Positions 2,318 to 24,509 are shown, counted from the stretch's first letter. The stretch: DNA of 64,000 nucleotides from Bdellovibrionales bacterium (GCA_020628165.1 JAHDFM010000011.1:18969-82968); one strand, 5' to 3'. Translations and numbers: made by a program. The notes: generated by a model from the sequence alone, not told the origin.

Positions 2318-2637
2318 ATATTAATGAGAGCACCAGTGCAACTGTCATTTATCTCAATGGATCTTTTGACGCTACTGTCAGTCGAGATGTGAGAGAAAAG
2401 TTTGATGGACTTATTTCGAAAGGATTACAAAACTTTATAGTGGATCTTGAGCAAGTTGATTTTATAGATTCATCGGCTTTAGGTGCGTTGGTTGGATTTT
2501 TTAAAAAAGTCCGAGTGGGGGAAGGTGATGTCAAACTAGCAAGGCTGTCTTCACAAATTTTAAAGATATTTGAGCTAACTCAATTAGACCAAGTCTTTGA
2601 AATATTGCCCTGGGATTATGCTAAAAAAATAGGTTAA
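2308..2637 (+). CDS. STAS-domain anti-sigma-factor antagonist (RsbV/SpoIIAA-like)
   Basis: 109 aa. Has the conserved phospho-serine motif DFIDSSALGAL. AAGGAG RBS lies before ATG 2308, and the ORF overlaps the upstream ORF by 10 nt (translational coupling). Confidence 0.85.
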   Translation: MEVNINESTSATVIYLNGSFDATVSRDVREKFDGLISKGLQNFIVDLEQVDFIDSSALGALVGFFKKVRVGEGDVKLARLSSQILKIFELTQLDQVFEILPWDYAKKIG

Positions 2638-2639
2638 CC

Positions 2640-4592
2640 TTGCTTTATGAAGTATTTGTTAGCTCTATTTACTTCGTAAAAATCATTATTTGTTTTTTTT
2701 GTGTCTTCTATTATCTGCCTAAAAAAGTGACCGATAATACCAAGATTTGTTTCAAAAAAAATAAATTCAATATAATTCTTACATTCGTTGCAGCGGCCTT
2801 AGTGATCTCACAGGTTTTGTCAGTATTGAAAATGTTAGAAACTTTTTCACTTATAGTCTGCCTTTGTGTTTTTAGTCTTGGATTGAGGCTGCAACTTAAA
2901 AAAGTAAATGTTTTTGATTTCTTTAATGAATTAAAAACCCGTTGTTACATAGAGATGTTCACTTATCTAGAGATGAAAAATTTTATGATGTACGTATTTA
3001 ATCGATTAACAAATTGGGCACGAGTGAAGTTACGGTGGGCCTCTTTTCAGGTTAACCCGTATCACATGCTCACTTTAGTGCCATTTGTATTGATTGGATC
3101 TTTTTATTTGCTTGAAAATTTAAATTCATACACAAATTCTGATCTTCAGCATATTCTTAATTATAAGAAAGTAGGATTAGGAAACTTATTTGGTTTGAAT
3201 CATTTTTCAATTGGAAACTATTTCTTCACAAACTTTATGTTAACCATTTTAAATATTGATATTGAGAAAGTATATTCTTTACTCATTTTAATTAATGCTG
3301 TTGTAAATATGTTTGTGGTCAATACAGTTCTTGCTAAACTTTTTGAATCTAAGTCTTTAGGAATAACAGGATTAGGTGTATTTATTGTCGGACTTTTCTC
3401 CTTTTCAAGTAGTTCAGGGCTGGTGTTTAACGAAGAGTTTAGTGTCAATCTCATGTTGGCCTCTGTTTTATTAATTAATGTTTATGAGTTAAGCAAAATT
3501 AGTGTTGTTCAGATAAAGGCTCTTAGAAAGACTGATTTAACTTTAAGTCTTGCCGTGATGTCTTTTTTAAGTTTGAAGTTAACCCTCTTATTTGCCATTG
3601 CTGCCATTGCTTATTTTTCATTAAAAACGGCACAAAAAGAGCTTTTGACTAAAAAGATCTATTCAAACATAGGCCTCGGATTTCTTCCATTGTTCCTTTT
3701 TAGTCTCTTACGTTATTTATTTGTCGATGGCTCATTGTTATTGGATTTAAAATCTGAGTTCTTTATAAAAGAAACGGCACAGGTTGGTTTGTTTTCAAAA
3801 TCAACCACTGTGTTTTATTTGTCATATATATTGAGTTTAGGATTGTTTTTAATCTCTAGCTCTATAACAGACTTTAAGAATAAAATAAGAATAGATGGTT
3901 TTATAAAATTTGTTTTTATTTTTAACACTGTATTATTTGTATTAGATAAGCTGGTTCCAACCGTTGTAGATATCAATCAGATTCTTAAAGAGCTCTGTGC
4001 AGTGAATGCCGTTGTTATTTCTATTTCTATTTATATAGTACTTAAATGCAAGGTATTTGCAGATTTAGTAAAACAACAAAAAAGAGCTATGCCGGCTCTG
4101 AGTTGCTTATTAATACTTAGCTATGTTTTGTATTCAAAGCCAAATTATTCGTATGCTATTAATAATGTTAAAGGCTATAAGTTTTCAAAGATTATAAATC
4201 GAATTAAGTATCAAAGCGTTCGACACTCATGGACAGTCATAGGAGAACATTCATTTTTTTCTTTAATCTACGGTAGTGGATATCATTTAAGCGTGAAAGA
4301 TTTTTTAGAAAAGTACCAAGCTAAGGAATATATTTGGGACCCATATGATCCTGAGACAACTATTGGGACTAATTATGTTTATTTTGTTTTAAACAAAAAT
4401 AAATTAGACCAAGACACAAAACAAGAAAAACTACTTAGAAACTGGATAGCTGAGTATGAGTTTCGGCATGAAGAGTTAGATCGATTCTATGAAGATGAAT
4501 CCTATGTCGTTTATCAGCTTTATCGGTCTCCAGAGTTTGAAAAGAAAATTAAAAAACAGATGTATTTAAAAAAAATAAATGAGGGCTCTTAA
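2640..4592 (+). CDS. Polytopic inner-membrane protein (roughly 12 hydrophobic segments) with a ~150-aa soluble C-terminal domain; function unknown, candidate polymerase or membrane glycosyltransferase
   Basis: 650-aa ORF, extremely hydrophobic for the first ~480 aa, packed tightly between the STAS gene and a GT4 gene. Only a TTG start is available at 2640. No family motif recognised. Confidence 0.55.
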   Translation: MLYEVFVSSIYFVKIIICFFCVFYYLPKKVTDNTKICFKKNKFNIILTFVAAALVISQVLSVLKMLETFSLIVCLCVFSLGLRLQLKKVNVFDFFNELKTRCYIEMFTYLEMKNFMMYVFNRLTNWARVKLRWASFQVNPYHMLTLVPFVLIGSFYLLENLNSYTNSDLQHILNYKKVGLGNLFGLNHFSIGNYFFTNFMLTILNIDIEKVYSLLILINAVVNMFVVNTVLAKLFESKSLGITGLGVFIVGLFSFSSSSGLVFNEEFSVNLMLASVLLINVYELSKISVVQIKALRKTDLTLSLAVMSFLSLKLTLLFAIAAIAYFSLKTAQKELLTKKIYSNIGLGFLPLFLFSLLRYLFVDGSLLLDLKSEFFIKETAQVGLFSKSTTVFYLSYILSLGLFLISSSITDFKNKIRIDGFIKFVFIFNTVLFVLDKLVPTVVDINQILKELCAVNAVVISISIYIVLKCKVFADLVKQQKRAMPALSCLLILSYVLYSKPNYSYAINNVKGYKFSKIINRIKYQSVRHSWTVIGEHSFFSLIYGSGYHLSVKDFLEKYQAKEYIWDPYDPETTIGTNYVYFVLNKNKLDQDTKQEKLLRNWIAEYEFRHEELDRFYEDESYVVYQLYRSPEFEKKIKKQMYLKKINEGS

Positions 4593-6217
4593 TGAATATA
4601 CTATTGTTGCACGGTTATGGTTTGGATAGATCAGGTTCTAATGTTTTTATTAAAAATTTGGCCAGAAATCTGTGTGATCAAGGTCATAATGTTCATTTGT
4701 TTTGCCAAGCAAGTCTAGAAGAAGCACAAAATGAATGCAACAGCTACTATGAATACAATAGCAAGAATAAAGTTAAATTTTTTGTTGAAGACAACAGCTT
4801 TCAATGTTCAGGTAACCTGTATATTCATAAAGCTGATATTTCGATATTACTTGTTTATAATATGGATAAGTACAATGGTTTTGAAAAAGTCACCACTTAC
4901 ACTCAGGCCAGTAAAGAAGAATTAGAGACTTATTTTGTTAAAAATGCTTCTTTGGTGCGTAAAATATGTATGCGCTATCAAATTGACATTGTTCTTGCTA
5001 ATCATATTTTAGGAATGCCAGAAGTTGCAAGGCGTGCCACACATCTAACGGGGGTTCCTTTTGTGATCAACCCACACGGATCTTCGATTGAATACAGTAT
5101 TAGGGGGAATGATCACTTTAAGAGTCTTTGTCGCGAAAGTTTTATTAGGGCCAAGGCCATTGTGGTTGGCAGCGAAGAGATGAAACGACGAATTGAAGAT
5201 ATATGGGGCACTAAATTCAATAAAAAGTTTATTCAGATAAATATGGGAGTGAACACCTCATTATTCAATGCAAATGATAAGATCACAGAACTGCAAGTCA
5301 CAGACAGAGAGTTTCTTGAAAAGAGGTATTCAAAAGAATTTTTTGATGAGTTTTATGAACAACAAAAGTCAGTCTCAGCTGAGAAGTTAAATGCTGCAAT
5401 GACTAAGAATCGGGATCATTTTTTACAAAACAAAAGTGACAAAGACTACACTGAGAAAGTCAATGCTAATAAGGCTTCAAAAAAAATTGTATATGCAGGT
5501 AAAATGATTGTTGGTAAGGGGGTGCATAACTTAATTTTTGCAGTGGCTCAGGCAAAAAATATAGAGTTAATGCTTGCAGGAGAAGGGACTTTTCGACCTT
5601 GCCTAGAGCTGTTGGTGCGTGCTCTGCAATATACTGACTATAATTTATTTAAGACAATTGTTACAAATGGTCCTTATTTTGATGGCAAGCCTAAAAAAGT
5701 GATGGCAAGCCTCGAAAGGTACCTAAATCAAGTAGAGTTCACCAAGTTGAGTGAAATGGCTCAACAGAACAATTTGATTGAACGAGTTAAATTTTTAGGC
5801 TTTCTAACTCATGAGCAATTGGTTTCTCTTTACAAAGTCTGTCACTACCTTTTTCTACCTTCTGAAGTGAAAGAGGCCTATCCACTTTGCCTTATTGAGG
5901 CAGCTGCCTGTGGACTTTTACCCCTTGCCACAGACACGGGTGGCAATAAAGAGTTTCTCAATCGTTTGTCAGCCAACTTATTCAAAGATGAAAAAAGTCT
6001 TGTCATTGCTTCTGAATCTAATGAAGTGGTGGGATCTATTCACAGTAAGATTGAGACCATTAAAGATGTTAATTTTTCCGCGGCAGAGATGTCTGAGTAT
6101 GTTCATAAAAACTACGATGTTAAAAATATAACGAAACAATATTTAAATGAATTTAGTAAACTAGTATATGGAGACAATGATGAAAGAGCAAATTTTAAAC
6201 AAGCTTCCTGTTTATAA
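4592..6217 (+). CDS. Glycosyltransferase, GT-B fold, family 4-like, with a long internal insertion
   Basis: ATG overlaps the upstream stop (TAATG). The C-terminal half has the GT4 signature region (..EAYPLCLIEAAACGLLPLATDTGGNKEF..). The N-terminus MNILLLHGYGLDRSGSNVF is paralogous to the ORF at 13387. Confidence 0.8.
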   Translation: MNILLLHGYGLDRSGSNVFIKNLARNLCDQGHNVHLFCQASLEEAQNECNSYYEYNSKNKVKFFVEDNSFQCSGNLYIHKADISILLVYNMDKYNGFEKVTTYTQASKEELETYFVKNASLVRKICMRYQIDIVLANHILGMPEVARRATHLTGVPFVINPHGSSIEYSIRGNDHFKSLCRESFIRAKAIVVGSEEMKRRIEDIWGTKFNKKFIQINMGVNTSLFNANDKITELQVTDREFLEKRYSKEFFDEFYEQQKSVSAEKLNAAMTKNRDHFLQNKSDKDYTEKVNANKASKKIVYAGKMIVGKGVHNLIFAVAQAKNIELMLAGEGTFRPCLELLVRALQYTDYNLFKTIVTNGPYFDGKPKKVMASLERYLNQVEFTKLSEMAQQNNLIERVKFLGFLTHEQLVSLYKVCHYLFLPSEVKEAYPLCLIEAAACGLLPLATDTGGNKEFLNRLSANLFKDEKSLVIASESNEVVGSIHSKIETIKDVNFSAAEMSEYVHKNYDVKNITKQYLNEFSKLVYGDNDERANFKQASCL

Positions 6218-8432
6218 GTTAGACTATATTGATTCAGAGTACTTAAGTAGTCATGAGTCAGACCATGTATATATTGATCTTTCAGACACAGATTTACTAG
6301 AAGTAGAAGATTTATTAACACTCAATAATATATATAGTTTGTGCACAGAAATGAACAAACAGGCCCATTTGATTGTGAATAAAAAATCGATTCTCTCAAC
6401 TCAGCTTGATTTTGAGCGCTTGCATCGAAAGTTTAATATCACTTACCAAGGTGAAGATTTATCAGAATTTGAACAAGAGTCTGAGTCCGTTGACATTGAA
6501 CTTTCAAATATCCCTCAAGACTGGAGGGATGATGTTGACCAGGTGATAGAGAAAATTGAAGCAAGTACCTATGAAAATGCACTTTTCATGTTCAAATGGA
6601 TCATCAATAATGAAAAATTTCTTTACTCTCAGAATTTAATATCTCCTTATATGGATATCATTCCAAAACTGATCATGAAATCTGATGAACGGAAATTAGT
6701 TTTCATCATTGAGTCTTTACCAGTTGGTCAAATCATTAAATTGTTTTTTGATGATTACACGATCATCCCTGATCAAAAAATAGCTAGGCTCTTTGATAAA
6801 ATGGATGATGAGCTTTTGGTGAAATTGTTCCAGAAAATGACCCTTGGAGTGGATTTACCTAGCCGATCTGGTGAAATTTTATCATTGATGGGCTCTAAGT
6901 TGAAGGCAAAGGTCATTAACCAATTATCATGCATTTCCATCCTTAAAATGTTTAAATTCGCTAACAATGTTCGTGTGATTGATGCTTTGATTTTATGCAT
7001 GTCTAAGAAGAAGGTTTTTGAGTTGTTTAAATTCATTGATCAGTCAGATGTCGAAAACAAAGACGATATGAAGTTTTATTTAGATTATGTTTCTATTCAT
7101 GACTTGGGATGTTTTTCAGGAAAAGAGGATGAATTTGATTTTGAACCTAACAACGTCTGGGTCAACCTCAATATTAATAGTTTCGACAAGTTATTCTTTG
7201 TTTTTTCTGGGCAAGGAAACAATGATGCAAATTTTTGTGATCATTTCACCGTTAGAAAAATACAAGAAAATATTGACTATGCCTATGGCAGAAAACGAGT
7301 GGATGTTCACCTTGTTGAGTTTGATAAAAGTCGCTTCAAAGCGGAGTGCTACAAGTCAGAAGCATTGAATACAAATTACCAGCAATTTTTAAGTTCTTAC
7401 TCAGGCTGTGATAGTTTGAGTAAGAATGATTTTAAAAATCTTGGCTTATTTCAGCTACAAACCAAAGCTCAAGAAAGAAACATAGATATAGCCATTAATG
7501 GCAATTTTTATTTTGATTACGGTCATCATTTATATGGTCAAAAATTAGGACTTCCATTGGAACATTCGCAAGGTCTTAATTTTGGAGATCCAGTAGGTTT
7601 ACTTATAAATAATTATAAAACATTGTCGCCTGCTATTTACAACAGAGCGACCTTTTTAGTGACGGAGGATGAAGACATTACCATCGATCGCGTGAAAGAG
7701 TCTGAGATCACAGTTTCGGGTGAGCACCTTATATGGAATAAAGAAAATACGCAGGATGTGAGCCTTGATGATGTCGTTTTCTATAATAATATCTTTGGTT
7801 TCAAAACTCCAATAAACCCAGGTCGCTTAGAATTAATAATTACTAAGGATAAGATTCTAAAAGTTAAAGAGGGAGGAGGAGCCCTTATACCTTTTACCGG
7901 CTTTGTAGTGAGTATCGATAAGAGCAAATATAAGGGCAAGTTTAGACAAGACGACCTTGTTGTTTATAACAATTACTATAAAAGCAAAAAAATCAAAGAA
8001 GCCATAGGTTGTGGACCGTTACTGGTGCAAAATGGAGAAATAGAAATTAACTTCAACAAAGAAGACTTTGGCAAACAAGATAGCAGTGTCATGTCCTTTT
8101 TTCTACCTCGTCAATTTGAAAAATATGAAGCCGCAAGAAGTTTTATTGGCTTGCGTGGTGATAAAGTTGTCATTGGTGCTGTCTCTGGCTGTTCTTACGG
8201 AACTGGCTTACAAGAGACTTCAACTGGAATGACTTTTTCTGAATTGGCCATGTTTTGTCGTGATATTGGCTTAGAGACGGCCATGGGGCTGGATGGAGGT
8301 GGGTCAAGTTCGATTGTGACCAAACAAGAGGGAGACTTTAAGATCCTAAACACTCCCACAGGTGGTAAAGATGTTCCTCGCGGAACAGAGCGCTTTATAT
8401 CAACGTCTTTGATGTTTCAATTGAAGGAGTGA
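6168..8432 (+). CDS. Protein with a C-terminal phosphodiester glycosidase (NAGPA / DUF2233-like) domain; the ~430-aa N-terminal region is unassigned
   Basis: The C-terminus shows the family hallmark ..FIGLRGDKVVIGAVSG..GMTFSELAMFCRDIGLETAMGLDGGGSSSIV.. No obvious signal peptide. Several in-frame ATGs at 6168, 6177 and 6180 all overlap the upstream gene. Confidence 0.65.
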   Translation: METMMKEQILNKLPVYKLDYIDSEYLSSHESDHVYIDLSDTDLLEVEDLLTLNNIYSLCTEMNKQAHLIVNKKSILSTQLDFERLHRKFNITYQGEDLSEFEQESESVDIELSNIPQDWRDDVDQVIEKIEASTYENALFMFKWIINNEKFLYSQNLISPYMDIIPKLIMKSDERKLVFIIESLPVGQIIKLFFDDYTIIPDQKIARLFDKMDDELLVKLFQKMTLGVDLPSRSGEILSLMGSKLKAKVINQLSCISILKMFKFANNVRVIDALILCMSKKKVFELFKFIDQSDVENKDDMKFYLDYVSIHDLGCFSGKEDEFDFEPNNVWVNLNINSFDKLFFVFSGQGNNDANFCDHFTVRKIQENIDYAYGRKRVDVHLVEFDKSRFKAECYKSEALNTNYQQFLSSYSGCDSLSKNDFKNLGLFQLQTKAQERNIDIAINGNFYFDYGHHLYGQKLGLPLEHSQGLNFGDPVGLLINNYKTLSPAIYNRATFLVTEDEDITIDRVKESEITVSGEHLIWNKENTQDVSLDDVVFYNNIFGFKTPINPGRLELIITKDKILKVKEGGGALIPFTGFVVSIDKSKYKGKFRQDDLVVYNNYYKSKKIKEAIGCGPLLVQNGEIEINFNKEDFGKQDSSVMSFFLPRQFEKYEAARSFIGLRGDKVVIGAVSGCSYGTGLQETSTGMTFSELAMFCRDIGLETAMGLDGGGSSSIVTKQEGDFKILNTPTGGKDVPRGTERFISTSLMFQLKE

Positions 8433-8433
8433 C

Positions 8434-10044
8434 ATGAGTGAGGTTTTAGAGCAGGAGACCATTGATAAAAAGATTGAGGAATTATCTGACTTTGTCATAG
8501 AAACTGCTGAAAAACCCATGAGTTCTATGGCCGTGGCTGCTTTATTAGAGAGTCGTGGCTTGCGTGACGTCGATGCTATTGAAAAGTTCAATTGTAAAAA
8601 TATTTTTGACCTTGCTGATATTGTCTATCAACAAGTTAAGCAGAGGTTGTATGATGACTTCAAAACAACGGCCAGTAAAATACAAAAAGAAAAATTATTA
8701 TTTACGCTAAAAAGGTTTTTTCTACTTTATGGCAAAGGTATTCTCTTTGCTGCACCTATGGTGGGGCAATTGTTCTCTATTCTTTACTTTAGGTACTCAC
8801 TATGGGCATGGATGGACTTTTCTGTGATGCAAGCGTCTATAGTTGCGATTGCCACATTGTTTAGTTTTATTTTCACTGGTGGGTTAGCTCAGATCATTGG
8901 TCGTGAAGGTATTTTTTATAGTGGGCAAAAAAACCCTTATTTGATGAATAAGGTGTGTTTGAAGCTTATTGCTTTTGGCGTGGCCATAGCCACTGTTTTT
9001 TCAGTGGTTGTATTTTTATCTAATATTGTATTTGGATTTTTTTCTACTCAGAATTATTTAATTTTTTTACTGTACTACAACTTATTAACATACTTGTGGC
9101 TGATATTTTCAGTTCTTTTTATGTTGGAGTTTAATTTAGCGATTTTACTGTCTACAGTCTTTGGCACTCTCATTGTTCATGCAGTTATGATTTCTAAGTG
9201 GAGTAACATATATTTGGCTCATGCTTGTGGGTTGTCGGTGGCGACTATAACTGCTTTGCTTTTTTATTATTGGGTTTACAAGAAAAAGATCAAACAAATG
9301 GATGAGAAGCTCTATCATTCAAAATTACCTAGACGAAGCGTTTTAGTCTATATTGTTGAACCCTTTATGATCTTTGGAACTTTTTATTTTTCTTTTTTAT
9401 TTGTAGATAGAATCGTTGGCTGGTCTGCTGGAACATTTAAACAACCGTTGCCAATTTGGTTTCGAACTCCCTATGAGCTAGGTATGGATTGGGCCTTAAC
9501 GGGACTTTTGATCACTTCTGCTGTTTTAACTTATACGGTTCACCAATTCAATATGCGCTTAATACCTATACAACAATCTATTAAGGCTGTTGATTATGTA
9601 ACTTTTAACAAGCACTTCAAAGGCTTTTTTTATCAACAAATGATTATGATTTGCGTGGTGAGTTTGATGAGCACTTTTTTTGTCTATTTCGGAGCACTTG
9701 CAATTAAGAATAACGTGAATTATTTAGAGGTGGAAGAATTTTTCTCAAGTGGAATCACTTATTTTACCTTTTGGTTTGCTTCTTTTGGGTACAGTTTTTT
9801 AATCATAGCTCAAATGTGTGCCTTGTTTTTCTTTTCTCTAGCAAAAACACAAATAGTTATCAAAAACATAGCCATTGCTCTCGTTGCCAACATAATGATT
9901 GGCTACATTTTAAGTCGAACGATTGCTTACGAATACAGTGTTGTGGGTTTGTTTTTTGGATCACTAATTTATTTACTATTAATGGTGAGGAGTTCGAAAA
10001 AAATGATTGATAAGTTGGATTATCAATATTATTCGGCATTTTGA
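8434..10044 (+). CDS. Polytopic membrane protein, possible PelG-like exopolysaccharide export component, with a ~95-aa cytoplasmic N-terminal extension
   Basis: 536 aa, AAGGAG RBS, at least 10 hydrophobic segments. The segment ..FSFIFTGGLAQIIGREGIFYSG.. resembles the PelG motif ..LILTGGLQLLFTRFVSDRLFE.. as I recall it. A PelF-like gene lies two ORFs downstream. Family assignment is tentative. Confidence 0.45.
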   Translation: MSEVLEQETIDKKIEELSDFVIETAEKPMSSMAVAALLESRGLRDVDAIEKFNCKNIFDLADIVYQQVKQRLYDDFKTTASKIQKEKLLFTLKRFFLLYGKGILFAAPMVGQLFSILYFRYSLWAWMDFSVMQASIVAIATLFSFIFTGGLAQIIGREGIFYSGQKNPYLMNKVCLKLIAFGVAIATVFSVVVFLSNIVFGFFSTQNYLIFLLYYNLLTYLWLIFSVLFMLEFNLAILLSTVFGTLIVHAVMISKWSNIYLAHACGLSVATITALLFYYWVYKKKIKQMDEKLYHSKLPRRSVLVYIVEPFMIFGTFYFSFLFVDRIVGWSAGTFKQPLPIWFRTPYELGMDWALTGLLITSAVLTYTVHQFNMRLIPIQQSIKAVDYVTFNKHFKGFFYQQMIMICVVSLMSTFFVYFGALAIKNNVNYLEVEEFFSSGITYFTFWFASFGYSFLIIAQMCALFFFSLAKTQIVIKNIAIALVANIMIGYILSRTIAYEYSVVGLFFGSLIYLLLMVRSSKKMIDKLDYQYYSAF

Positions 10045-10049
10045 GGGTT

Positions 10050-11663: not shown

Positions 11664-11680
11664 GTCAAATATCAGTATTA

Positions 11681-13327: not shown

Positions 13328-13386
13328 ATAATATTTATTTGACACTGTGGTGCCGCTTTTTCATACTAAATGAACGGAGACCAAGT

Positions 13387-14805
13387 ATGGATTACAGAAA
13401 ACATATATGTTTGTTGCACAGCTATGGAGTGGACGGTTCGGGGAGCTCTGTTTACACAATTGATTTAGCCAACGAGTTGGTAAAGTTTGGTTATCGTGTC
13501 AGTGTCATTTGTCACGAAACAAGGCTGAGTCACCTAAAGAACAACAACAAACAATTAAATCTTAAGAATGTTCATATTCCCTACTGCGAGACGAGAAAAA
13601 GTGAATTTGTGACTGTCTTTAGTTTATTCACTAAAAACACATTTGTTGCCTATGATCGTCCAGAACTGTCGAACACAAAACCAATCAATGAGGCCTCTCA
13701 CGATGAGATCATGCAACACACGGATGAGATTTATAAATTTTTAAATTATTTAAATTGCAAAAATCCAATAGAGCAAATTTTAGTGAATCACTTAAGTGTT
13801 TTGAACTTAGTTGCCAGTCAATTTGGCAAAAAAAACAATGTGCCATTCAAAACAATTGTGCATGGAACTTTTCTTGAATATGCCATCAATCGCAATTTGT
13901 ATTTTAAAAAGTTAGTGACTTATAGTTTAGAGCAGACCAGTGCTATTTTTGTTTTGAATGAATCCGTGAAAAGTCGCTTCTTAAAAACGTTTGATCGCTT
14001 CACAGAAAAAGTTAAAATTGTACCACCAGGTCTGAATCAAACTTATTTTGACACCAACCAAGTCAGTCCACAGGTCCTAGCCAGTGAACATAAAGTGATA
14101 TCCTACGTCGGACGTATCTCTTTAGATAAAGGCCTACATTGTTTATTGGTTATTTTACCTTTGTTGTCTCTTAAGCATAAGTTCACACTTAAAATAGCAG
14201 GGGACGGCCCTGATTTACCGTTTTTAAAAGATACAATGAACTTGCTGTCTCAGGGCCGCTTTAGAGAGTATTATGAAAAGTGTGAAGAATACATCGGCGA
14301 GACGAGAGATAAAGACATTGCGCGACTTTTGCTCAATCCGTTAAAAAATTATTTAGCAAAGTATGAACTGAATAAACTAAACACCATTGACTTTGAGCTC
14401 AATGTTGATTGGTTAGGACATTTGTCTAAACAGGGTTTGGAAAAACTATATAAAAAGTCCGAGTACAATGTTTTAACTTCGCTTGTTCCTGAAGCCCATC
14501 CGTTGGTTATTTGTGAAGCTTTAGCATGTGGGACAATGACCATTGCTAAAAATTTTTCTGGAATCACAGAGCTTTACTCAGACCTAGATGACTACTTATC
14601 CGGCTCTGAAGATAAAGATTATCAAATAGAAGATGATCATACCACTTTCATTGAAGAACTTTTTAAAGTTTGTGATCGTTACTTGCAAAAAAACACACTG
14701 AAAGAGTTGAGTCCACAATTGAAAGAGTTTGCGAAAAAGTCATACTCTTGGTCGTCGCTTGCTAGGAAGATACTGTATTCAGAAAATGAAACAATGTTTG
14801 TTTAA
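13387..14805 (+). CDS. Glycosyltransferase, GT4-like, paralog of the ORF at 4592
   Basis: ATG 13387 is preceded by ACGGAGA. The N-terminus HICLLHSYGVDGSGSSVYT parallels ILLLHGYGLDRSGSNVF of the 4592 ORF. The C-terminal region is ..VPEAHPLVICEALACGTMTIAKNFSG.. Confidence 0.75.
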   Translation: MDYRKHICLLHSYGVDGSGSSVYTIDLANELVKFGYRVSVICHETRLSHLKNNNKQLNLKNVHIPYCETRKSEFVTVFSLFTKNTFVAYDRPELSNTKPINEASHDEIMQHTDEIYKFLNYLNCKNPIEQILVNHLSVLNLVASQFGKKNNVPFKTIVHGTFLEYAINRNLYFKKLVTYSLEQTSAIFVLNESVKSRFLKTFDRFTEKVKIVPPGLNQTYFDTNQVSPQVLASEHKVISYVGRISLDKGLHCLLVILPLLSLKHKFTLKIAGDGPDLPFLKDTMNLLSQGRFREYYEKCEEYIGETRDKDIARLLLNPLKNYLAKYELNKLNTIDFELNVDWLGHLSKQGLEKLYKKSEYNVLTSLVPEAHPLVICEALACGTMTIAKNFSGITELYSDLDDYLSGSEDKDYQIEDDHTTFIEELFKVCDRYLQKNTLKELSPQLKEFAKKSYSWSSLARKILYSENETMFV

Positions 14806-14825
14806 GTATTTTACAGGGAGGTAAA

Positions 14826-15611
14826 ATGTCAAAATTTATGGGAATAATACTTGCGGCTGGAGCGGGAACGAGAATGCAGTCAACTCTTCCTAAAGTGCTT
14901 CATGAAGTCAATGGCAAAAGCATGGTGCAAAGTTCTATCGATGCTCTTAAGAAAGCTGGAGCTGAAGAAATTGTTGTTGTTGTCGGTTACAAAAAAGAAA
15001 TGGTCATGGAAAAACTGGGGGATCAGGTCAAGTACGCTGTTCAAGAACAGCAGCTAGGAACGGGGCATGCTGTAAAAGCAGCTGCTGAACATATTAAAAA
15101 CTACGATGGTAAAGTGGTCGTTGTTTATGGTGATAACCCACTTCTTAAAGTTGAAACCATCCAAAAATTAGTGACCTCTGTGGACGAGGAGCATAGCTGT
15201 AGCTTATTGACCATATCATTATTAAACCCTTCGCAGGCAGGGCGTATCGTTCGAGATAAGTCTGGGCGATTTTTAAAAGTCATAGAAGAGCAAGATTGCA
15301 GTAAGGAACAAAAAAAGATTTCCTACATAAACTGTGGCTCTTACTGTTTTAAAAGTAATTTGTTGTTAACGGCACTTGATCAGTTAAAATCAAACAATAG
15401 TCAAGATGAGTATTACCTGACTGATGTGCCAGGTTATTTTGTAGAGTCGGGAGAGAAAGTTCAGTTAGTGGAAGCAACGGATGTTTTTGAAATACTCGGC
15501 ATAAATGACAAGAAGCATTTAGAGTTTGCAGAAACTGCTCAAACTATTGAGTATGCCGAGGCTTTCTATGAAATAATTGATGCCGCCAGCAAACTGAAAA
15601 AGGCCGAGTGA
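14826..15611 (+). CDS. Sugar-1-phosphate nucleotidyltransferase resembling the N-terminal uridyltransferase half of GlmU, without the acetyltransferase half
   Basis: GGGAGG RBS. ILAAGAGTRMQSTLPKVLHEVNGKSMV matches the GlmU N-terminal signature. At only 261 aa there is no room for the left-handed beta-helix acetyltransferase domain. Confidence 0.8.
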   Translation: MSKFMGIILAAGAGTRMQSTLPKVLHEVNGKSMVQSSIDALKKAGAEEIVVVVGYKKEMVMEKLGDQVKYAVQEQQLGTGHAVKAAAEHIKNYDGKVVVVYGDNPLLKVETIQKLVTSVDEEHSCSLLTISLLNPSQAGRIVRDKSGRFLKVIEEQDCSKEQKKISYINCGSYCFKSNLLLTALDQLKSNNSQDEYYLTDVPGYFVESGEKVQLVEATDVFEILGINDKKHLEFAETAQTIEYAEAFYEIIDAASKLKKAE

Positions 15612-15615
15612 ATTT

Positions 15616-16383
15616 ATGTTAGAACGAATTGTATTAGAAGAAGAGGAAGTGTCTAAAAAAATACTTTTGGTTGATAATAAAGACGATGAAATTCGCATTT
15701 TAAGGCGTAGACTTTGCCAGTTTGGGTTTGACGTTGTCATAGCTGAAGGGCCAATGCGGGCTATCGATATTTTGTCAAAAGACAAAGATATAGAGTTGAT
15801 TTTTTTAGATTTTAACACATTAAATTTAACGGGCTTTCAGATAATCAATAAAATCGCTAAAATGAACCCTGCTCAAAAAGCTAAGGTGATTGTTCAGTGC
15901 AATGGTTGTTCAATCACTCAATTGCGCAATATCATTAAGTGCGGCGCATCCGATTGTTTAATAAAACCCGTGGATCAATTAGTGCTTCAGCACAAGGTCT
16001 CATCTATTTTAGGGTTGGATGTTGAAAAGTGGATGGACTACACCATCAATGAGTTTGATACAGACAAGGTTGCAGGAGTTTTTTTATTGTCTGACAATAT
16101 TGAATTGATGTCATTGAGTGAGCTAAACTTAAAATTTAAATGTCGACATGACATTGAGGTGGGCTCAAAGATTATTCTACGAGTACCGATTCTTGATGAA
16201 ATTGGTGTAGGGGAGTGTTTAGTTGAAATTATTTCCGTTGATTGTGATGGACACACAAACTTCTGCACAGCCAATATCATAGGTTTAGAAGAAGCGAAAA
16301 GAACTCAATTAAGAAAGTACATTCTTGAGTGTTATCGAAAAAAAAGAAAAGTAAAAAGCCAAGGACGACTCCCAAATTGCTAA
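15616..16383 (+). CDS. Response-regulator receiver domain protein with a C-terminal PilZ-like (degenerate) beta-barrel region
   Basis: Receiver pattern KILLVDN..IELIFLDFNTLNLTGFQ..CLIKPV. The C-terminal ~100 aa (..ELMSLSELNLKFKC..VGSKIILRV..CLVEIISV..ANIIGLEEAKRTQLRKYI) follow a PilZ-like strand pattern, but no clean RxxxR or DxSxxG motifs are present. Confidence 0.6.
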   Translation: MLERIVLEEEEVSKKILLVDNKDDEIRILRRRLCQFGFDVVIAEGPMRAIDILSKDKDIELIFLDFNTLNLTGFQIINKIAKMNPAQKAKVIVQCNGCSITQLRNIIKCGASDCLIKPVDQLVLQHKVSSILGLDVEKWMDYTINEFDTDKVAGVFLLSDNIELMSLSELNLKFKCRHDIEVGSKIILRVPILDEIGVGECLVEIISVDCDGHTNFCTANIIGLEEAKRTQLRKYILECYRKKRKVKSQGRLPNC

Positions 16384-16484
16384 CCGCAGTTTGGGCTTAT
16401 CCCACGATTAAAAAAGTATCACAGATCACTTTGGGCGCATTTTAGTCTTCTTGAGTTTATCACCCTCATTTTGAGAAAAGTACT

Positions 16485-16510
16485 GTCATCCTGAGGGAGA
16501 GCCGAAGGAT
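16485..16510 (+). repeat. Copy (diverged) of the dispersed GTCAYCC..GAAGGA repeat
   Basis: GTCATCCTGAGGGAGAGCCGAAGGAT lies in the convergent gap between the receiver gene and the TPR/barrel gene. An upstream half-unit TATCACCCTCATTTTGAG is also present. Confidence 0.55.
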
Positions 16511-16571
16511 ACAAGCAAAGACCATATTGTTAGTATGACGGTGTTATTTATTCTAAACAAAAGAATAATTT

Positions 16572-17999
16572 CTACAAAAATTTGTACGTCAGGTTAATAC
16601 TGAACAAGTTGTAGTTATAAACCTCAGATCCCGAGGATACATAGCGCATTTGCAGTTTAGCAGCCCTATTAATGACATAACTAAAGTAAACATCTGGCTG
16701 AAAGTTGACAGAGTCATCCTCTCTGATGGCCAGCTTAAATTGAGTGTCTAAAATGTATTTGTCAGTCTTAAACCACTCAACCCCAGCTCCAAGAGTATAC
16801 AAGGGGCGAGTATCTTCTGTGAAGTAAGGGGAGGCGCCGTCATAAATGGTTTTAAATTTCTGCTGAATTAAGTTAAAAGTGCTGTAAATTCGTTTGGGTT
16901 GATCAAAAGCATAGTACTTCCAAAACAGACTGTAATAAAAGTTAGTATTTTCGTCAGAAATCAACTGCTGAGTGATTTCACCACTGATGATATGGTCTTT
17001 AAATTGCTCAGAATAAACGCTAGCACTCATGTTGAGTGCCGAAATTTCATTGAGGTGTGCCTCTGTGGTGGGGTGATATGAGTCGTTCATTACTTTAAGA
17101 CTAACATAGTTCTTTGTAAACAGAGATGTATTAAAGACATAGCCATAATGAGGGATAGAGTTTGGTAGGTTCACTCCAATGTGTGCATGTGATATTGACT
17201 GAGATGTGTGTGACCAGCTAAGGGTTGATTTGAGCAGGTGATTGCTAAAGTCACGAACTTTGTCTTCTTGCAAGGTCGTTTGATGTTCCAGTTTGTACTT
17301 AAGCTTTGAGTTCAAATAATTGCTGTAATCGTTAGTTATCTGATTTTGTGTAAGGTCTGTGCTATCAACATAATATTTGTACTCATTGAATGTTTGCCCA
17401 GACTTTTCGTAACTAAGTAGGTCTTTGTATTTGAGAGCATTGCTATGAGACGGCTCAAGAGTGAGTATTTTATCATAGTTAGCGAGGCTTCTCTGCCAGC
17501 AGGTGTTCCAGTGACAATGCTGAGCTTGTAGGTAAAGCACTTCTGTGTCGTTGGGCTCTAAAGCAAGATAATCAGTGGCCGACTCTAAAAACGCTGGAAT
17601 GTCTTTCACAGAAATGTAAGCAAGCCCAATATTTTTTAAAGCTGTGTTGTTTTCACTATTGAGTTTAAGGACTTTCTTATAGTAAACAATCGATTTTTTA
17701 AACTGTTGATCCCACTGCAGTCCTTGCGCTAGGTCAAAAAGTAATTTTTCATTGCTTGGGTCCTTTTTAGCAAGAACTTCCATGTATTGCAGTCTTTTTT
17801 TGGTCAGTGAAACCCAACCAGACCACGTGATAATTTTTTTAAGAAGGTCTATATTTCTACGATCTTTTTTATACTGTTTTTCTGCGAGTTGAATAGCTTC
17901 TTTCGTTTTCCCTTGAGCCATCAGCGACTCTAGCGATAGGCCACTAGAGTAGGAGCTGACTGTATAAAAGGTTAAAAGTAAAATTAAAGTTGCTCGCAT
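16572..17999 (-). CDS. Secreted TPR-repeat + beta-barrel protein (small PelB/PgaA/BcsC-type polysaccharide export scaffold/porin candidate)
   Basis: Signal peptide MRATLILLLTFYTVSSYS. The N-terminal ~200 aa are TPR-like (..YYKKVLKLNSENNTALKNIGLAY.. LALEPNDTEVLY.. ILTLEPSHSNAL). The C-terminal ~270 aa have alternating beta-strand character and end ..NLTYKFL. Confidence 0.6.
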   Translation of the reverse strand: MRATLILLLTFYTVSSYSSGLSLESLMAQGKTKEAIQLAEKQYKKDRRNIDLLKKIITWSGWVSLTKKRLQYMEVLAKKDPSNEKLLFDLAQGLQWDQQFKKSIVYYKKVLKLNSENNTALKNIGLAYISVKDIPAFLESATDYLALEPNDTEVLYLQAQHCHWNTCWQRSLANYDKILTLEPSHSNALKYKDLLSYEKSGQTFNEYKYYVDSTDLTQNQITNDYSNYLNSKLKYKLEHQTTLQEDKVRDFSNHLLKSTLSWSHTSQSISHAHIGVNLPNSIPHYGYVFNTSLFTKNYVSLKVMNDSYHPTTEAHLNEISALNMSASVYSEQFKDHIISGEITQQLISDENTNFYYSLFWKYYAFDQPKRIYSTFNLIQQKFKTIYDGASPYFTEDTRPLYTLGAGVEWFKTDKYILDTQFKLAIREDDSVNFQPDVYFSYVINRAAKLQMRYVSSGSEVYNYNLFSINLTYKFL

Positions 18000-18088
18000 A
18001 TAATAAATAAATAATAATTATTTAATAAAGAATGATCGATCTAATTCGTTATTCTTCTTGAAAACTAGATGTAGGTGCAGCTCACAGT

Positions 18089-19198
18089 ATGGCGGGATTA
18101 AATACCGATTTTAATTTAACAAGCAAGATTGATACGAACTTACCATTTTCAGAAAGTTTGTTTTTTCCTTTTTTTAGTTTGATATTTCTATGTTTAGTTA
18201 AATCGTTAGTGAATATAAAATTATTTCCAAATGATCATGTTATAAATTCATTCATGATTTCACTGGTACTCATTTGTTTGGTCGAACACAATGTAGGGCG
18301 TTTGTTTGCCTATTATGAAGAGAACGAAAATATTTTTACGACGACAAGATTGAAATCTTACTTAGTCTCTACGGGGTTAATTCTTGCTTTCATACTTTCC
18401 ATCATAAGCTTTGTAAATGATAGTTTGGCCTACTTACTTCCACTAGATATCTATTTGTCATTCGTAGTTCTGCGATTAATGAAAAAAAAATTATCATTGA
18501 AAGTGGGGGTGCTTTTACTCACAGTCGTTTCTGCAGTTTTGTTTTTTAGTGGTAGTAGTCTTTATTTGTATCATTTGTTTTTAAAAATTATATTAACCGT
18601 TTGTTTTTTTAGATTATTTAAATTCACTTGGTATACATATTATAAGAAATATTTTATTAGAACTCATAAACTGTATTACAGCCTGTTTGGCTTTTGCATT
18701 TATTTCCCTTTAGCATTTTATTTTTATTTTAATCGTGAACAAGTAGTGCACTTTAGCATTATGTCCTTGGTTTTCCTTATGCTAGTGGGAGGGTCTTTTG
18801 TTGATTATCAATTCACCAACTCCTTACTGCGTTTGAAAAAGTTAGTTAGCTCCGAGATGTCATATGGTTCTTTTATAAATAATTCGTTGGATTATGCCGG
18901 TCGAGTGCAATTGATTTTTTCTGTGTACATGGTGCTAGTGGTTCTTTTTGCCAGCTATAGTGCTGTTCTAGGAATGTCTTTTGTTCCAATTGTGCTGCTT
19001 TCATTGGCAGTGTTTATGTATAAGTACAATTATTTCTTTCGTTTGAGTCAGTTGTTCCTAGTAAGTCATTTAATACTGCTCACTTTGGTTTGTGTGGTTG
19101 ATATGAGCTTATTCTTTATACTATATTTGTTGTTAGCATATGTTTTTTTTGTAGAGGGCTTTCGCAAGTTCCACCTTTATTTGCGTGGAATATTTTAA
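18089..19198 (+). CDS. Polytopic membrane protein, unknown function (candidate Wzy-like polymerase or other EPS membrane component)
   Basis: 369 aa, almost entirely hydrophobic segments, embedded in the EPS locus. No motif recognised. Confidence 0.5.
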   Translation: MAGLNTDFNLTSKIDTNLPFSESLFFPFFSLIFLCLVKSLVNIKLFPNDHVINSFMISLVLICLVEHNVGRLFAYYEENENIFTTTRLKSYLVSTGLILAFILSIISFVNDSLAYLLPLDIYLSFVVLRLMKKKLSLKVGVLLLTVVSAVLFFSGSSLYLYHLFLKIILTVCFFRLFKFTWYTYYKKYFIRTHKLYYSLFGFCIYFPLAFYFYFNREQVVHFSIMSLVFLMLVGGSFVDYQFTNSLLRLKKLVSSEMSYGSFINNSLDYAGRVQLIFSVYMVLVVLFASYSAVLGMSFVPIVLLSLAVFMYKYNYFFRLSQLFLVSHLILLTLVCVVDMSLFFILYLLLAYVFFVEGFRKFHLYLRGIF

Positions 19199-19221
19199 GA
19201 GAAAACAAAGGAGTTTAATTG

Positions 19222-20181
19222 ATGAAAAAATTAGTTGTCGTGACTGGAGGAGCTGGCTTTATTGGTTCTCATACTGTGGACTACCTACTTAAGAACAAGT
19301 ACCAAGTGATCGTTCTCGATGACTTCAGCACAGGGCGCAGGGAGAACTTAGAACATCACTCAGGCAACCCAGACCTAGAAGTGTACGAGGTCAACATCGT
19401 CACGCGCTTGTGGTCAAAACTTTCTGCCATTTTAAACGATCGCCCTGTTCATAGTATCATTCATTTAGCTGCTCAAACAGCTGTGGTGCAATCAGTGGCT
19501 GATCCTATCCAAGATGTAAAGGTGAACTATTCAACGACAATCGAAGTGCTTGAGTTTGCTAAGATCAATAATATTAAAAGTGTGTTTTTTGCATCGTCAG
19601 CGGCTGTGTATGGAGACTGTTCTGATGAACTCATATCAGAAAAAGCTCAATGCCAGCCCTTGTCGCCCTACGGAATCAATAAGCTCGGCTCTGAGATGTA
19701 TATGGAGTACTATAAAAAAGTTCACAACATCAACGCCACGTCATTTCGTTTTTTTAATGTGTTTGGACCAAGACAAGACCCTATGAGCTCTTACTCGGGT
19801 GTGATTTCTATTTTCTTTGATCGCGCTCTTAAAAATAAAGACTTGGTTATCTTTGGAGATGGACAACAAACGAGAGATTTTGTTTATGTCGAAGATGTCG
19901 TTCAAAATATTTTATTTTTTCTCAATGAAAACATGAGTTCGGTGGGGGCATACAATGTGGGGACATCCACTAAGACGACCATCACTGAGCTAGCAGAATT
20001 CATCATAGAGATGACGGGCTCAAAGAGCAAAATTATCCACAAAGAAAGTCGTCCGGGAGAAATCATTCACTCGCAGGCCTCCATTGAAAAACTTAAGAAA
20101 ATAAATAAGACATTCCCGAACTACGCCCTTGAGAACGGTTTGCAAATCACAACCGATTGGTTTCGCGAGGCCACCATTTGA
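19222..20181 (+). CDS. NAD-dependent sugar-nucleotide epimerase (extended SDR; GalE/WbpP/PelX-like UDP-hexose or UDP-HexNAc 4-epimerase)
   Basis: AAGGAG RBS. Rossmann motif VVTGGAGFIGSH and catalytic YxxxK (SPYGINKLGSE). About 320 aa, typical for the family. Confidence 0.85.
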   Translation: MKKLVVVTGGAGFIGSHTVDYLLKNKYQVIVLDDFSTGRRENLEHHSGNPDLEVYEVNIVTRLWSKLSAILNDRPVHSIIHLAAQTAVVQSVADPIQDVKVNYSTTIEVLEFAKINNIKSVFFASSAAVYGDCSDELISEKAQCQPLSPYGINKLGSEMYMEYYKKVHNINATSFRFFNVFGPRQDPMSSYSGVISIFFDRALKNKDLVIFGDGQQTRDFVYVEDVVQNILFFLNENMSSVGAYNVGTSTKTTITELAEFIIEMTGSKSKIIHKESRPGEIIHSQASIEKLKKINKTFPNYALENGLQITTDWFREATI

Positions 20182-21533
20182 GCGAACGCATTTCACTGAT
20201 TTTAGAAGGAGCTCAGAAGCCAAGTGTGGGTGGTGTTTTTCGTCATATAGAGTCACTTGTGAAAAGCCTTAAATACAAAAACTTTGAATTCATTCTCCTT
20301 TCAACTAAAGACCAAAGTGACAGTGAATTGCAATTTTTAAAGCAGTTCAATGTGACGGAACGACATGTGAGTCTCTTTCATCCTCACGCTATCAAAAGGT
20401 ATTGGCCATTCAAAGATAAAAAGTTAAAACAAGTTTACAGCTTTATAGAGTCTTTGATCGCTGGAGACACTCAACAAAAATTACAGAAAAAGTTTTTACA
20501 ATTAAAAAAAATGAAGTTTTCAAACAGCAGGGCAAAAAAAATAAGTCAGTGCGATATTAAAGAAATCACACATATCTGCGAAACACACTTTCAACAATCA
20601 GAAGTGAATGATGTGCGCGCCTTAGTGAGGAGCTTTATTTTGCCATTAAGAAACACAATAATGAATCATACGGAACTCAATGTTTCGCATGTATTTTCAG
20701 TGGGGTTGCCATTGTTTTTTGCGTTAAAAAATTCACGAGACACCAAGAAAATCATTGTCGATGTGCACGGCGATTTTCTAGCTGAGCTTGAATTTCAATT
20801 CCCGCACTATAAAAGCGTACAACAAGCTTTCAAAAATCTAGTGAATTTCAACTCTCACCAAATAGAAAATATGGTTTACCGAGGGGTGCGCAGTCAATTA
20901 CAAGCCAGCCAAACAGAAACCAACATCGTCCGTATTAATAATTTTAGCGCAAACAAGTTCAAGTCTCCAAAAGGGTCGGACACACTAAGGATTTCTTATG
21001 TTGGCCGTTTGAGCCGCGAAAAAGATGTTCTCACGGTGATTGAACAGTTCAAAGATTTTAACCAACAATACACAGAGCGAGCTGAGTTAAATATCATTGC
21101 CCCCAAAGGTTACGAAAAAAAATACTACGATTTATTAAAAGTAAAAATAAAAAAGTACAGGTTAACAAATGTAAATTTCCATTTCGATCTTAACCAAAAA
21201 GACCTCTACGCGTTCACAGATGTGCTCTTGTTAATGAGCGATTACGAGACTCAGCCATTGGTGTTAATCGAGGCTGCTCAATTAGAAATCCCTGTGATCT
21301 GCAACGATCTTCCATCATTACGACAAATGGTCACTTCAAGGAAGTACCAAAAAGATCTATTCATAAATAAAAAAGAAAAAAACGAAGCCGTAGAGGCACT
21401 AAACTTAATGAGCAACATCACCAAAAGAAAACAATACGGCCAACTCTTAAAAAGTATACTAGATCAAAAACACACAGAAAAAGCCTTCAGAAGTAGCTAC
21501 GACAATCTTTATAGAGATGTCTCAATTATTTAA
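20178..21533 (+). CDS. Glycosyltransferase, GT4-like
   Basis: C-terminal GT4 region ..SDYETQPLVLIEAAQLEIPVICNDLPSL.. The probable TTG start at 20178 overlaps the epimerase stop (ATTTGA). The ORF track starts it at 20157. Confidence 0.7.
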   Translation: MSERISLILEGAQKPSVGGVFRHIESLVKSLKYKNFEFILLSTKDQSDSELQFLKQFNVTERHVSLFHPHAIKRYWPFKDKKLKQVYSFIESLIAGDTQQKLQKKFLQLKKMKFSNSRAKKISQCDIKEITHICETHFQQSEVNDVRALVRSFILPLRNTIMNHTELNVSHVFSVGLPLFFALKNSRDTKKIIVDVHGDFLAELEFQFPHYKSVQQAFKNLVNFNSHQIENMVYRGVRSQLQASQTETNIVRINNFSANKFKSPKGSDTLRISYVGRLSREKDVLTVIEQFKDFNQQYTERAELNIIAPKGYEKKYYDLLKVKIKKYRLTNVNFHFDLNQKDLYAFTDVLLLMSDYETQPLVLIEAAQLEIPVICNDLPSLRQMVTSRKYQKDLFINKKEKNEAVEALNLMSNITKRKQYGQLLKSILDQKHTEKAFRSSYDNLYRDVSII

Positions 21534-23242: not shown

Positions 23243-23258
23243 AATATTTGTATCTCCG

Positions 23259-24485: not shown

Positions 24486-24509
24486 GGTGATTCCTCTTTT
24501 GTTAATTGG

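Follow-up and report, generated by a model that had tools for sequence, protein, structure and literature searches.

The closest described relatives of the gene cluster analysed here, which occupies positions 36-21533 of a 64,000-nucleotide stretch of DNA from a Bdellovibrionales bacterium (GCA_020628165.1, JAHDFM010000011.1:18969-82968; the window), are the Pel exopolysaccharide systems, encoded by pelABCDEFG in Pseudomonas aeruginosa and by pelDEA(DA)FG in Bacillus cereus, with pelX as a recurrent accessory gene. PelF is a DUF3492 and GT4 glycosyltransferase of the cytoplasm, and PelG is a polytopic protein of the inner membrane (Pfam PF16933). The cyclic di-GMP receptor PelD is built of four transmembrane (TM) segments with GAF and degenerate GGDEF domains, and the small protein PelE of two TM segments with tetratricopeptide repeats (TPRs). 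PelB joins a TPR scaffold to an outer-membrane porin at its C-terminus, and PelC is a lipoprotein. PelA acts in the periplasm and combines a GH114/GH166-like hydrolase with a CE4 deacetylase, or takes a DUF2194-containing form in Gram-positive bacteria; glycoside hydrolase family GH114 is related to the PelA hydrolase. The polymerisation of Pel, its transit across the inner membrane and the role of PelG are unsettled. The operon survey of Bundalovic-Torma et al. recorded Gram-positive loci with only pelF and pelG, and the class of locus presented below is not described in it (PMC7112194). A second point of comparison is the Vibrio fischeri pair formed by SypE, which combines a kinase, a receiver and a PP2C phosphatase, and the STAS protein SypA, which together govern Syp polysaccharide output (PMC10120452).

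The locus shares with Pel a PelF glycosyltransferase encoded beside a PelG-family membrane protein of the MOP superfamily, a PelX-like C4-epimerase, a TPR-containing secreted protein that is a candidate for export, and a link to cyclic di-GMP (c-di-GMP). It differs in having no PelD, PelE or PelC and no PelA-type hydrolase/deacetylase in the window, in the divergence of its PelG-like protein, which carries an N-terminal extension of about 100 residues, and in the addition of a PelF paralog, a protein with a predicted GT-C fold, a partner switch, and an HD-GYP protein instead of a GGDEF-type receptor. On balance we favor the view that the locus encodes a regulated, Pel-related machine for an N-acetylhexosamine (HexNAc) polymer, in which the Pel core is joined to an added GT-C step. 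An initial annotation of the span 2640-21533 had described a synthase-type hybrid that keeps the PelF/PelG core and in which PelD and PelA are replaced by other modules. The core is supported by a PelF score above the curated cutoff, by PelG-linked homologs and by a MOP fold, and the absence of PelD holds; a purely synthase-type character is less well supported, and a general loss of PelA does not hold.

Judged by gene content and order, the locus is a member of a conserved, previously undescribed architectural class that spans multiple phyla. A scan of species-representative genomes with the alignment of the PelG-like protein gave 316 relatives, from which 80 loci were retained; 42 of the 80 are from Balneolales, and many of the contigs are short. 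By tblastn, PelF adjoins the PelG-like gene in 82 of 82 loci. Clustering of open reading frames (ORFs) from 81 loci recovered the PelG-like family in 77, PelF in 75, the HD-GYP family in 61, the PelF paralog (PelF2) and a family of about 680 residues in 60 each and GH114 in 49, with large DUF2194-containing proteins in 40 and 15. The core of PelF, PelF2, PelG-like, GT-C and HD-GYP proteins recurs in at least nine phylum-level groups, among them Myxococcota, Chloroflexota, Acidobacteriota, Bacteroidota, Ignavibacteria, Actinomycetota, KSB1/Calditrichota, Kryptonia and Balneolales, so that the cluster is not the idiosyncratic hybrid that it had first appeared to be. A typical order is GH114, HATPase_c_2, PelF2, PelF, PelG-like, the ∼680-residue protein, SpoIIE, REC, HD-GYP, STAS and DUF2194-TPR. 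Partner-switch genes (SpoIIE, HATPase_c_2, STAS) accompany the core in most groups outside Balneolales, where a receiver-histidine kinase is found instead, and in many loci the kinase and phosphatase are separate genes. In the closest clade, PelF is 61-67% identical, the order is PelG-like, HD-GYP, PelF, and the epimerase, an insertion-bearing GT4 enzyme, a GlmU-N enzyme and a stand-alone TPR protein are also present. In the literature searched, PelF/PelG and STAS/SpoIIE are brought together in no paper, and linkage of a GT-C family to PelF/PelG-like genes is not described, the searches for PelG with GT-C giving unrelated papers only. The class would extend Pel-type matrix production to little-studied groups such as Balneolales, Anaerolineae, Ignavibacteria and Myxococcota. 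As a separate observation, the Balneolales clusters (L022:19983-20625 and about 30 others) close with two conserved small membrane proteins, one of DUF2752 and one with a TM2 domain, encoded directly after the DUF2194 giant.

The PelF assignment is the firmest of the individual assignments. The protein matches Pfam DUF3492 (E 6e-36) and Glycos_transf_1 (E 7.6e-29), and its 168.5 bits on the NCBIfam PelF model exceed the cutoff of 100. The translation confirms the N-terminus EGTYPYMGGGVSTWCHIL. By these profiles the protein is a bona fide PelF, as had been proposed. The second DUF3492 protein of the locus, a paralog, matches DUF3492 with E 8.5e-12 and also contains Glycos_transf_1, and its 45.8 bits on the NCBIfam PelF model lie under the cutoff.

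The PelG-like protein has 168 homologs, many of them full length at 35-40% identity (E ∼1e-100 to 1e-110), and several of these carry PF16933 or bear the NCBI name PelG. The Pfam PelG model (cutoff 29 bits) is matched by 10 of 37 aligned family members with 27-44 bits, its positions 24-452 aligning to homolog residues ∼100-540. The TGGL..R segment noticed initially is present at residues 147-157 and falls on invariant or near-invariant columns of the family (G149, G150, Q153, G156, R157). The AlphaFold2 (AF2) model has a pLDDT of 86.5, and Foldseek returned 47 matches at E<=1e-3, with MATE, MurJ and WzxE at a probability of 1.00; the family profile gave no meaningful sequence match among solved structures, including solved MOP proteins. 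The resemblance to the Wzx, MurJ and MATE branches of the MOP superfamily is therefore one of predicted fold, and the cytoplasmic N-terminal extension is specific to this subfamily. We conclude that the protein probably represents a divergent subfamily on the margin of PelG, a placement made through full-length homologs that match Pfam PelG and through the MOP fold. The direct profile match that had been expected is absent, and the criterion set initially, read literally, would count this against PelG. The first ∼100 residues (window 8434-8733), which the Pfam PelG model does not cover, are helical and among the best conserved of the subfamily, with invariant P28, V34, A36, E39, S40, G42, R44 and D47; a regulator or PelF may dock onto this extension.

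The 650-residue protein, which the initial annotation had left unassigned, is a full-length member of the ∼680-residue family, matching its hidden Markov model (HMM) end to end (E 3.3e-38, positions 9-657 of 666). Genes of this family mostly adjoin the PelG-like gene. Neither the protein nor its family has a Pfam, NCBIfam or PDB sequence match; a word-indexed search found the protein itself only and a 24-sequence profile one further match, while an exhaustive search of representative genomes gave 36 relatives, which were the source for the structural model. That model (26 sequences, pLDDT 81.2, pTM 0.81) consists of a polytopic helical module of ∼11-13 helices followed by an alpha/beta domain at residues ∼510-650. 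In a Foldseek search of the PDB, the top eight matches were all GT-C proteins at a probability of 1.00 with TM-scores of 0.32-0.47, and included yeast and human STT3, PglB, the DPY19 C-mannosyltransferase, ArnT and AftA; Pmt4 followed at 0.97 and all others at <=0.25. The arrangement of an N-terminal membrane module and a C-terminal soluble domain is likewise predicted to be shared with STT3/PglB, ArnT, AftA/Emb, PMT and DPY19. GT-C enzymes typically have a catalytic acid, conserved among them, in their first extracytoplasmic loop. The near-invariant residues of the present family are D/E67 (acidic in 94%), E111 (99%), K176, G192, F555 and W602, and the two acids among them lie in the N-terminal module. 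The protein quite probably has a GT-C fold, and according to its model it would be a GT-C-type core component of the conserved cluster. Of the three further membrane proteins that had been listed as unassigned, the 369-residue protein is the one that stays so, and the 536-residue protein is the PelG-like protein counted a second time.

In the mechanism that we favor, the GlmU-N-type enzyme and the PelX-like epimerase would supply UDP-N-acetylglucosamine (UDP-GlcNAc) and UDP-N-acetylgalactosamine (UDP-GalNAc), which PelF, its paralog and the two other GT4 enzymes would link into sugar chains on the cytoplasmic side. In the inner-membrane platform, the place of PelD and PelE would be taken by the PelG-like MOP protein together with the GT-C-fold protein, and the latter would most likely carry out glycosyl transfer on the periplasmic side of this membrane from a polyprenyl-phosphate-linked donor. 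The secreted TPR protein with its β-rich module would serve passage of the polymer across the outer membrane. The SypE/SypA-type kinase-phosphatase/STAS switch would gate output post-translationally by acting on presumed targets, and the HD-GYP protein would tie output to c-di-GMP instead of a PelD receptor. The polymer itself is probably rich in HexNAc, as GalNAc and GlcNAc. Among close relatives of the locus, a Spherulin4-family gene is found at L084:21263-21626 and a nearby gene for a Pel9A-like β-helix protein at L083:17010-18815. The fungal galactosaminogalactan hydrolase Sph3 belongs to the Spherulin4 family, and both genes are consistent with processing of a GalNAc-type polymer.

Several points weigh against this account. 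The PelG-like protein has no Pfam or NCBIfam match even at E<=10, and its homologs score just 27-44 bits on the PelG model, around the cutoff. The GT-C assignment comes from a single AF2 model with the TM-scores given above and has no counterpart in sequence, since there is no significant match to any GT-C family in Pfam, NCBIfam or the PDB and PMT_2 was matched in one of 26 relatives (E 0.019); hydropathy and charge do not place the conserved acids on either side of the membrane. The locus has no enzyme that loads sugar onto polyprenyl phosphate (no GT2 and no WecA/WbaP type), the GH114 and DUF2194 domains that tie the relatives to Pel chemistry are not found in the window, and the β-barrel or porin of the TPR protein is predicted rather than demonstrated. 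The class as a whole is known from genes, sequence comparison and predicted structures alone.

The position of a MOP-fold protein next to a GT-C-fold protein suggests a step with lipid-linked sugars on the periplasmic side of the inner membrane, and with the GT-C fold in a core protein a lipid-carrier-type element enters the system, which weakens a purely synthase-type reading. These Wzx-like and GT-C folds bring the system nearer to Wzx/Wzy logic than had been assumed. The locus could also be imagined as a lipid-carrier pathway. Undecaprenyl phosphate would then carry a repeat unit made by the GT4 enzymes, flipping would fall to the PelG-like protein, and periplasmic polymerisation or ligation to the GT-C protein or the 369-residue protein. 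The model of the PelG-like protein resembles the lipid-linked-sugar flippases WzxE and MurJ as well as MATE, the fold of the 650-residue protein is that of enzymes using lipid-linked donors, four GT4-type enzymes suggest the repeat unit of a heteropolymer, and the 369-residue protein, with ∼9 hydrophobic segments and no family, has traits common in Wzy-type polymerases. However, the components are not the ordinary Wzx/Wzy/Wza set: the locus has no initiating phosphoglycosyl transferase, no GT2 and no Wza- or Wzc-type protein, and the TPR export candidate is of the synthase-dependent kind and is fused to PelA-like DUF2194 in relatives. In addition, the 369-residue protein is conserved in none of the related loci, and the Foldseek matches of the GT-C protein are of the STT3/PglB/ArnT/AftA class, with no solved ligase or polymerase types among them. 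We regard this pathway as unlikely.

The same structural matches bear on another possibility, namely that no polymer is secreted and a lipid, protein or existing glycan of the cell envelope is modified, with the GT-C protein as a terminal transferase like ArnT, PglB or PMT. Its credible structural matches do act on protein, lipid A or arabinan acceptors, but the PelF pair, the signal-peptide-bearing TPR protein and the GH114 and DUF2194 proteins of relatives are partners that handle polymers, and a PelX-like epimerase recurs as an accessory in this class just as it does with Pel. Such a role is very unlikely.

An extension of the favored account, which we hold as tentative and rather doubtful, is that proteins of the PelG family truly flip polyprenyl-linked sugars and that the class follows a third exopolysaccharide route, made up of a PelF-type enzyme, a PelG-type flippase and a new GT-C family. 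Equally doubtful is the accompanying proposal that part of the polymer would be made, or attached, at the periplasmic surface of the inner membrane under control of the STAS switch and HD-GYP protein, with no PelD-type receptor. If true, this route would bear on how canonical Pel crosses the inner membrane, and the co-occurrence of GT-C and HD-GYP genes with PelF/PelG-like genes makes it a testable hypothesis. The conserved GT-C partner is the element most likely to surprise a Pel specialist, such a fold not being known from Pel systems, and it provides a family-level assignment for a group of ∼650-680-residue proteins without a Pfam or NCBIfam model.

In the Pfam and NCBIfam scans, no PelA, PelC, PelD, PelE, GGDEF, GH114 or DUF2194 was found in the ORFs of the locus, in agreement with the initial annotation. 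A search of the full 64 kb, translated in six frames, with HMMs derived from the GH114 (50) and DUF2194 (57) proteins of the relatives was likewise negative. For PelD, there was no GGDEF or GAF match in the ORFs of 36-21891 or among the conserved families of related loci; no ORF of the PelE build is present in the locus, the presence of a PelE model in the libraries being unconfirmed; and no PelC-like ORF was seen in the locus. DUF2194 is a domain of Gram-positive PelA (PMC7890745). The relatives, though not the window, thus share GH114 hydrolases and DUF2194 domains with Gram-positive PelA, and because of these genes many of them appear to retain PelA-type functions. The absence of both domains here is accordingly specific to the lineage, and replacement of PelA by other modules is not general.

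These absences also bear on whether the locus is a canonical Pel system in disguise, in which the 650-residue, 369-residue and NAGPA proteins are PelA, PelD and PelE diverged beyond recognition. The genome is low in G+C, the sequences are highly divergent and even the PelG-like protein is missed by the Pfam model. Nonetheless, the ∼11-13 helices and predicted GT-C fold of the 650-residue protein are unlike PelD or PelE, there is no protein of GAF-GGDEF build, the six-frame search for GH114 and DUF2194 was empty and the NAGPA family is without signal peptides, so that we consider this explanation highly improbable.

The NAGPA domain noted initially is present, and its assignment as a PelA replacement is doubtful: an N-terminal hydrophobic segment or signal peptide occurs in none of five family members, because of which the protein is unlikely to be a periplasmic substitute for PelA. 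Its N-terminal 590 residues have no match in a Pfam domain-only scan. Family members are present in the Chloroflexota loci L013 and L072, where they occur as tandem pairs (L013:11892-16735 and L072:732-6447). The NAGPA-domain proteins of this class have neither a signal peptide nor a TM segment, and it is puzzling to find a cytoplasmic phosphodiester glycosidase-like protein inside a polysaccharide locus.

Upstream of the gene for the GT-C-fold protein, two overlapping genes encode a pair that by domain content has the SypE/SypA architecture. The first protein contains HATPase_c_2 at residues 53-146, a Response_reg region at 179-279 (20.5 bits, cutoff 30.2) and SpoIIE at 352-548, and has homologs in 17 related loci. 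The second matches Pfam STAS with E 3.4e-19 and the NCBIfam anti-sigma factor antagonist model with 71.8 bits (cutoff 53.45), and a D54-S55-S56 motif is read from its translation. Unphosphorylated Ser56 marks the active form of SypA, which promotes Syp-dependent biofilm (PMC10120452; PMC4517449). As in V. fischeri, the tripartite kinase-receiver-PP2C protein is thus encoded beside a STAS protein with Ser56 in a DSS motif inside a polysaccharide locus, and the pair may be the second case, after Vibrio Syp, of such a switch encoded within one. Unlike SypE, the protein has a degenerate receiver (residues 165-300), in which alignment with CheY and the receivers of the loci places Tyr at the Asp57 equivalent and Leu at the Lys109 equivalent, so that phospho-acceptor and conserved Lys are both missing; in a Polyangiales homolog the Asp and Lys are kept. 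To our knowledge the syp locus is of the Wzx/Wzy type and lacks PelF and PelG. There is precedent for a partner-switch-like module acting directly on an exopolysaccharide enzyme (bioRxiv 10.64898/2026.04.08.717354).

The HD-GYP protein, also named in the initial annotation, scores 36.7 bits on Pfam HD_5 (cutoff 27.2), gives a partial match to the NCBIfam NosR-family c-di-GMP phosphodiesterase (E 8.3e-17) and contains the motif HHENCQGYGYP. The family keeps H..R, HD, HP..G and HHE..G.G.P, which are metal-binding and GYP-type motifs. By family membership, the protein would be the sole link of the locus to c-di-GMP. Its N- and C-termini have no match in Pfam domain-only scans, and the same is true of the C-terminal domain of the 650-residue protein and the N-terminus of the PelG-like protein. 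The C-terminus (window 11478-11660) is a Cys-rich tail with ∼12 Cys in 55 residues (for example CQGCP and CKSCKDC); tblastn matches reach into the tail in L003, L005 and L063, and it is missing from most family members. The tail may be a metal or redox sensor. The further response-regulator protein of the locus keeps both the phospho-acceptor Asp and the Lys. Its C-terminal part has no Pfam match, and a PilZ domain considered there from the sequence is unsupported. No histidine kinase was seen among the annotated ORFs.

The remaining glycosyltransferases and sugar-nucleotide enzymes agree with their initial descriptions. All three additional GT4 enzymes are present, the last being the PelF paralog. 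The other two are paralogs of each other: the upstream one has homologs in L003, L013, L025 and L084, and the downstream one in L003 and L084 at 28% identity (E 1e-55 to 1e-57). An E-x7-E motif can be read in the translations of four of four GT4 proteins. The GlmU-type nucleotidyltransferase is limited to the N-terminal uridylyltransferase half, the NCBIfam GlmU models aligning at positions 2-235 of 447 only (E 6e-79), and has homologs in eight related loci. The best solved-structure matches of the epimerase are 6WJB and 6WJ9 (E 2e-62), which are entries for the UDP-GlcNAc C4-epimerase PelX (preprint 10.1101/2020.05.26.111013). Homologs of 49% identity are encoded immediately upstream of the PelG-like gene in L004 and L084.

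A signal peptide is present in the TPR protein, and a TM helix is not. The repeats cover residues 24-190, a part that also gives a partial match to PgaA. The protein aligns to the C-terminal residues 812-1255 of DUF2194-TPR fusions encoded in loci of Bacteroidota and Ignavibacteria (E 2.7e-22). The C-terminal residues of its homologs are YRY or HRF, as is usual in outer-membrane barrels, and one homolog is encoded directly upstream of the PelG-like gene in L083. Against solved structures, the profile matched generic TPR proteins only and no porin sequence. Of the secreted TPR and β-barrel protein first described, the signal peptide, the repeats and the β-rich C-terminus are therefore confirmed, and the barrel is a prediction. 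The 369-residue protein has no Pfam or NCBIfam match at E<=10 and no homolog in 82 related loci.

The ORF listing contains 16 closely spaced genes in the locus, of which 13 lie within 2640-21533 (Table 1), so that the tight packing and stop/start overlaps reported initially are borne out and the count of about 15 is not. All genes but the one for the TPR protein are on the plus strand. Junctions are overlaps or gaps of 1-20 nt, for example 4592/4592, 10041/10044, 8432/8434 and 20157/20181.

Table 1. Genes of the locus, with positions in the window.
Feature	Position	Strand	Basis
208 aa ORF, possibly first visible gene of the unit; overlaps next gene by 19 nt	36..662	+	No family
SypE-like protein: RsbW-type serine kinase (HATPase_c_2), receiver-like region and PP2C/SpoIIE phosphatase	644..2317	+	Pfam
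Single-domain STAS protein, SypA/SpoIIAA-like, likely output of the phospho-switch	2308..2637	+	Pfam, NCBIfam
650 aa polytopic membrane protein, predicted GT-C fold with C-terminal soluble alpha/beta domain	2640..4592	+	Family HMM, AF2, Foldseek
GT4 glycosyltransferase, large insertion between two Rossmann halves	4592..6217	+	Pfam Glycos_transf_1, Glyco_transf_4
754 aa protein, C-terminal NAGPA (phosphodiester glycosidase) domain and long N-terminal region	6168..8432	+	Pfam NAGPA E 5.4e-22, residues 592-749
PelG-like MOP-superfamily membrane protein, 536 aa, ∼100 aa conserved N-terminal helical extension	8434..10044	+	Homologs and fold
HD-GYP domain protein, Cys-rich C-terminus	10041..11663	+	Pfam HD_5/HD
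PelF, DUF3492 and GT4 glycosyltransferase	11681..13327	+	Pfam and NCBIfam
GT4 glycosyltransferase with insertion	13339..14805	+	Pfam Glycos_transf_1/Glyco_transf_4; paralog of 4592-6217
GlmU N-terminal-type sugar-1-phosphate uridylyltransferase, without acetyltransferase half	14826..15611	+	NCBIfam
Response-regulator receiver with ∼120 aa C-terminal domain	15616..16383	+	Pfam Response_reg 44.9 bits
Secreted TPR protein, ∼280 aa β-rich C-terminal module; candidate outer-membrane export scaffold/porin	16572..17999	-	TPR and homologs
369 aa polytopic membrane protein, ∼9 hydrophobic segments, lineage-specific	18089..19198	+	Hydropathy
PelX-like short-chain dehydrogenase/reductase (SDR) sugar-nucleotide C4-epimerase	19219..20181	+	Pfam Epimerase E 3.7e-59
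Second PelF paralog, DUF3492 and GT4, core family member	20157..21533	+	Pfam, NCBIfam

The three genes upstream of the 650-residue protein gene are co-oriented and overlapping and are part of the locus unit, which may extend past the left edge of the window. The first of them, the 208-residue ORF, has no Pfam or NCBIfam match and no homolog across 82 related loci, and is counted with the locus by orientation and overlap only. On the other side, minus-strand genes for lipoamide dehydrogenase and for E2 and E1 of 2-oxoglutarate dehydrogenase (21836-27233) come next downstream, which sets the end of the locus at 21533. A scan for promoters and terminators gave the same counts as shuffled controls and was therefore uninformative, and no tRNA was found in the 64-kb window. 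The G+C content is 35.7% in the locus (1-21533) and 40.1% in the remainder of the window (21534-64000). The loci that hold its closest PelF and PelG-like relatives (PelF as given above, PelG-like 43-47% identity) have a G+C content of 56-65%, and two of these loci come from Myxococcota metagenome-assembled genomes. The G+C contrast and these high-G+C relatives hint at horizontal transfer or strong compositional drift.

Elsewhere in the window, 39830-43129 (minus strand) encodes a 1099-residue protein with three LamG-type domains. Three large plus-strand ORFs have no Pfam family at E<=1e-5, one of 1343 residues at 47387-51418 and an adjoining pair of 512 and 711 residues at 58125-61788. These genes sit amid housekeeping genes, including those for MscS, FolE2, a UvrA-like ABC ATPase and class I ribonucleotide reductase.

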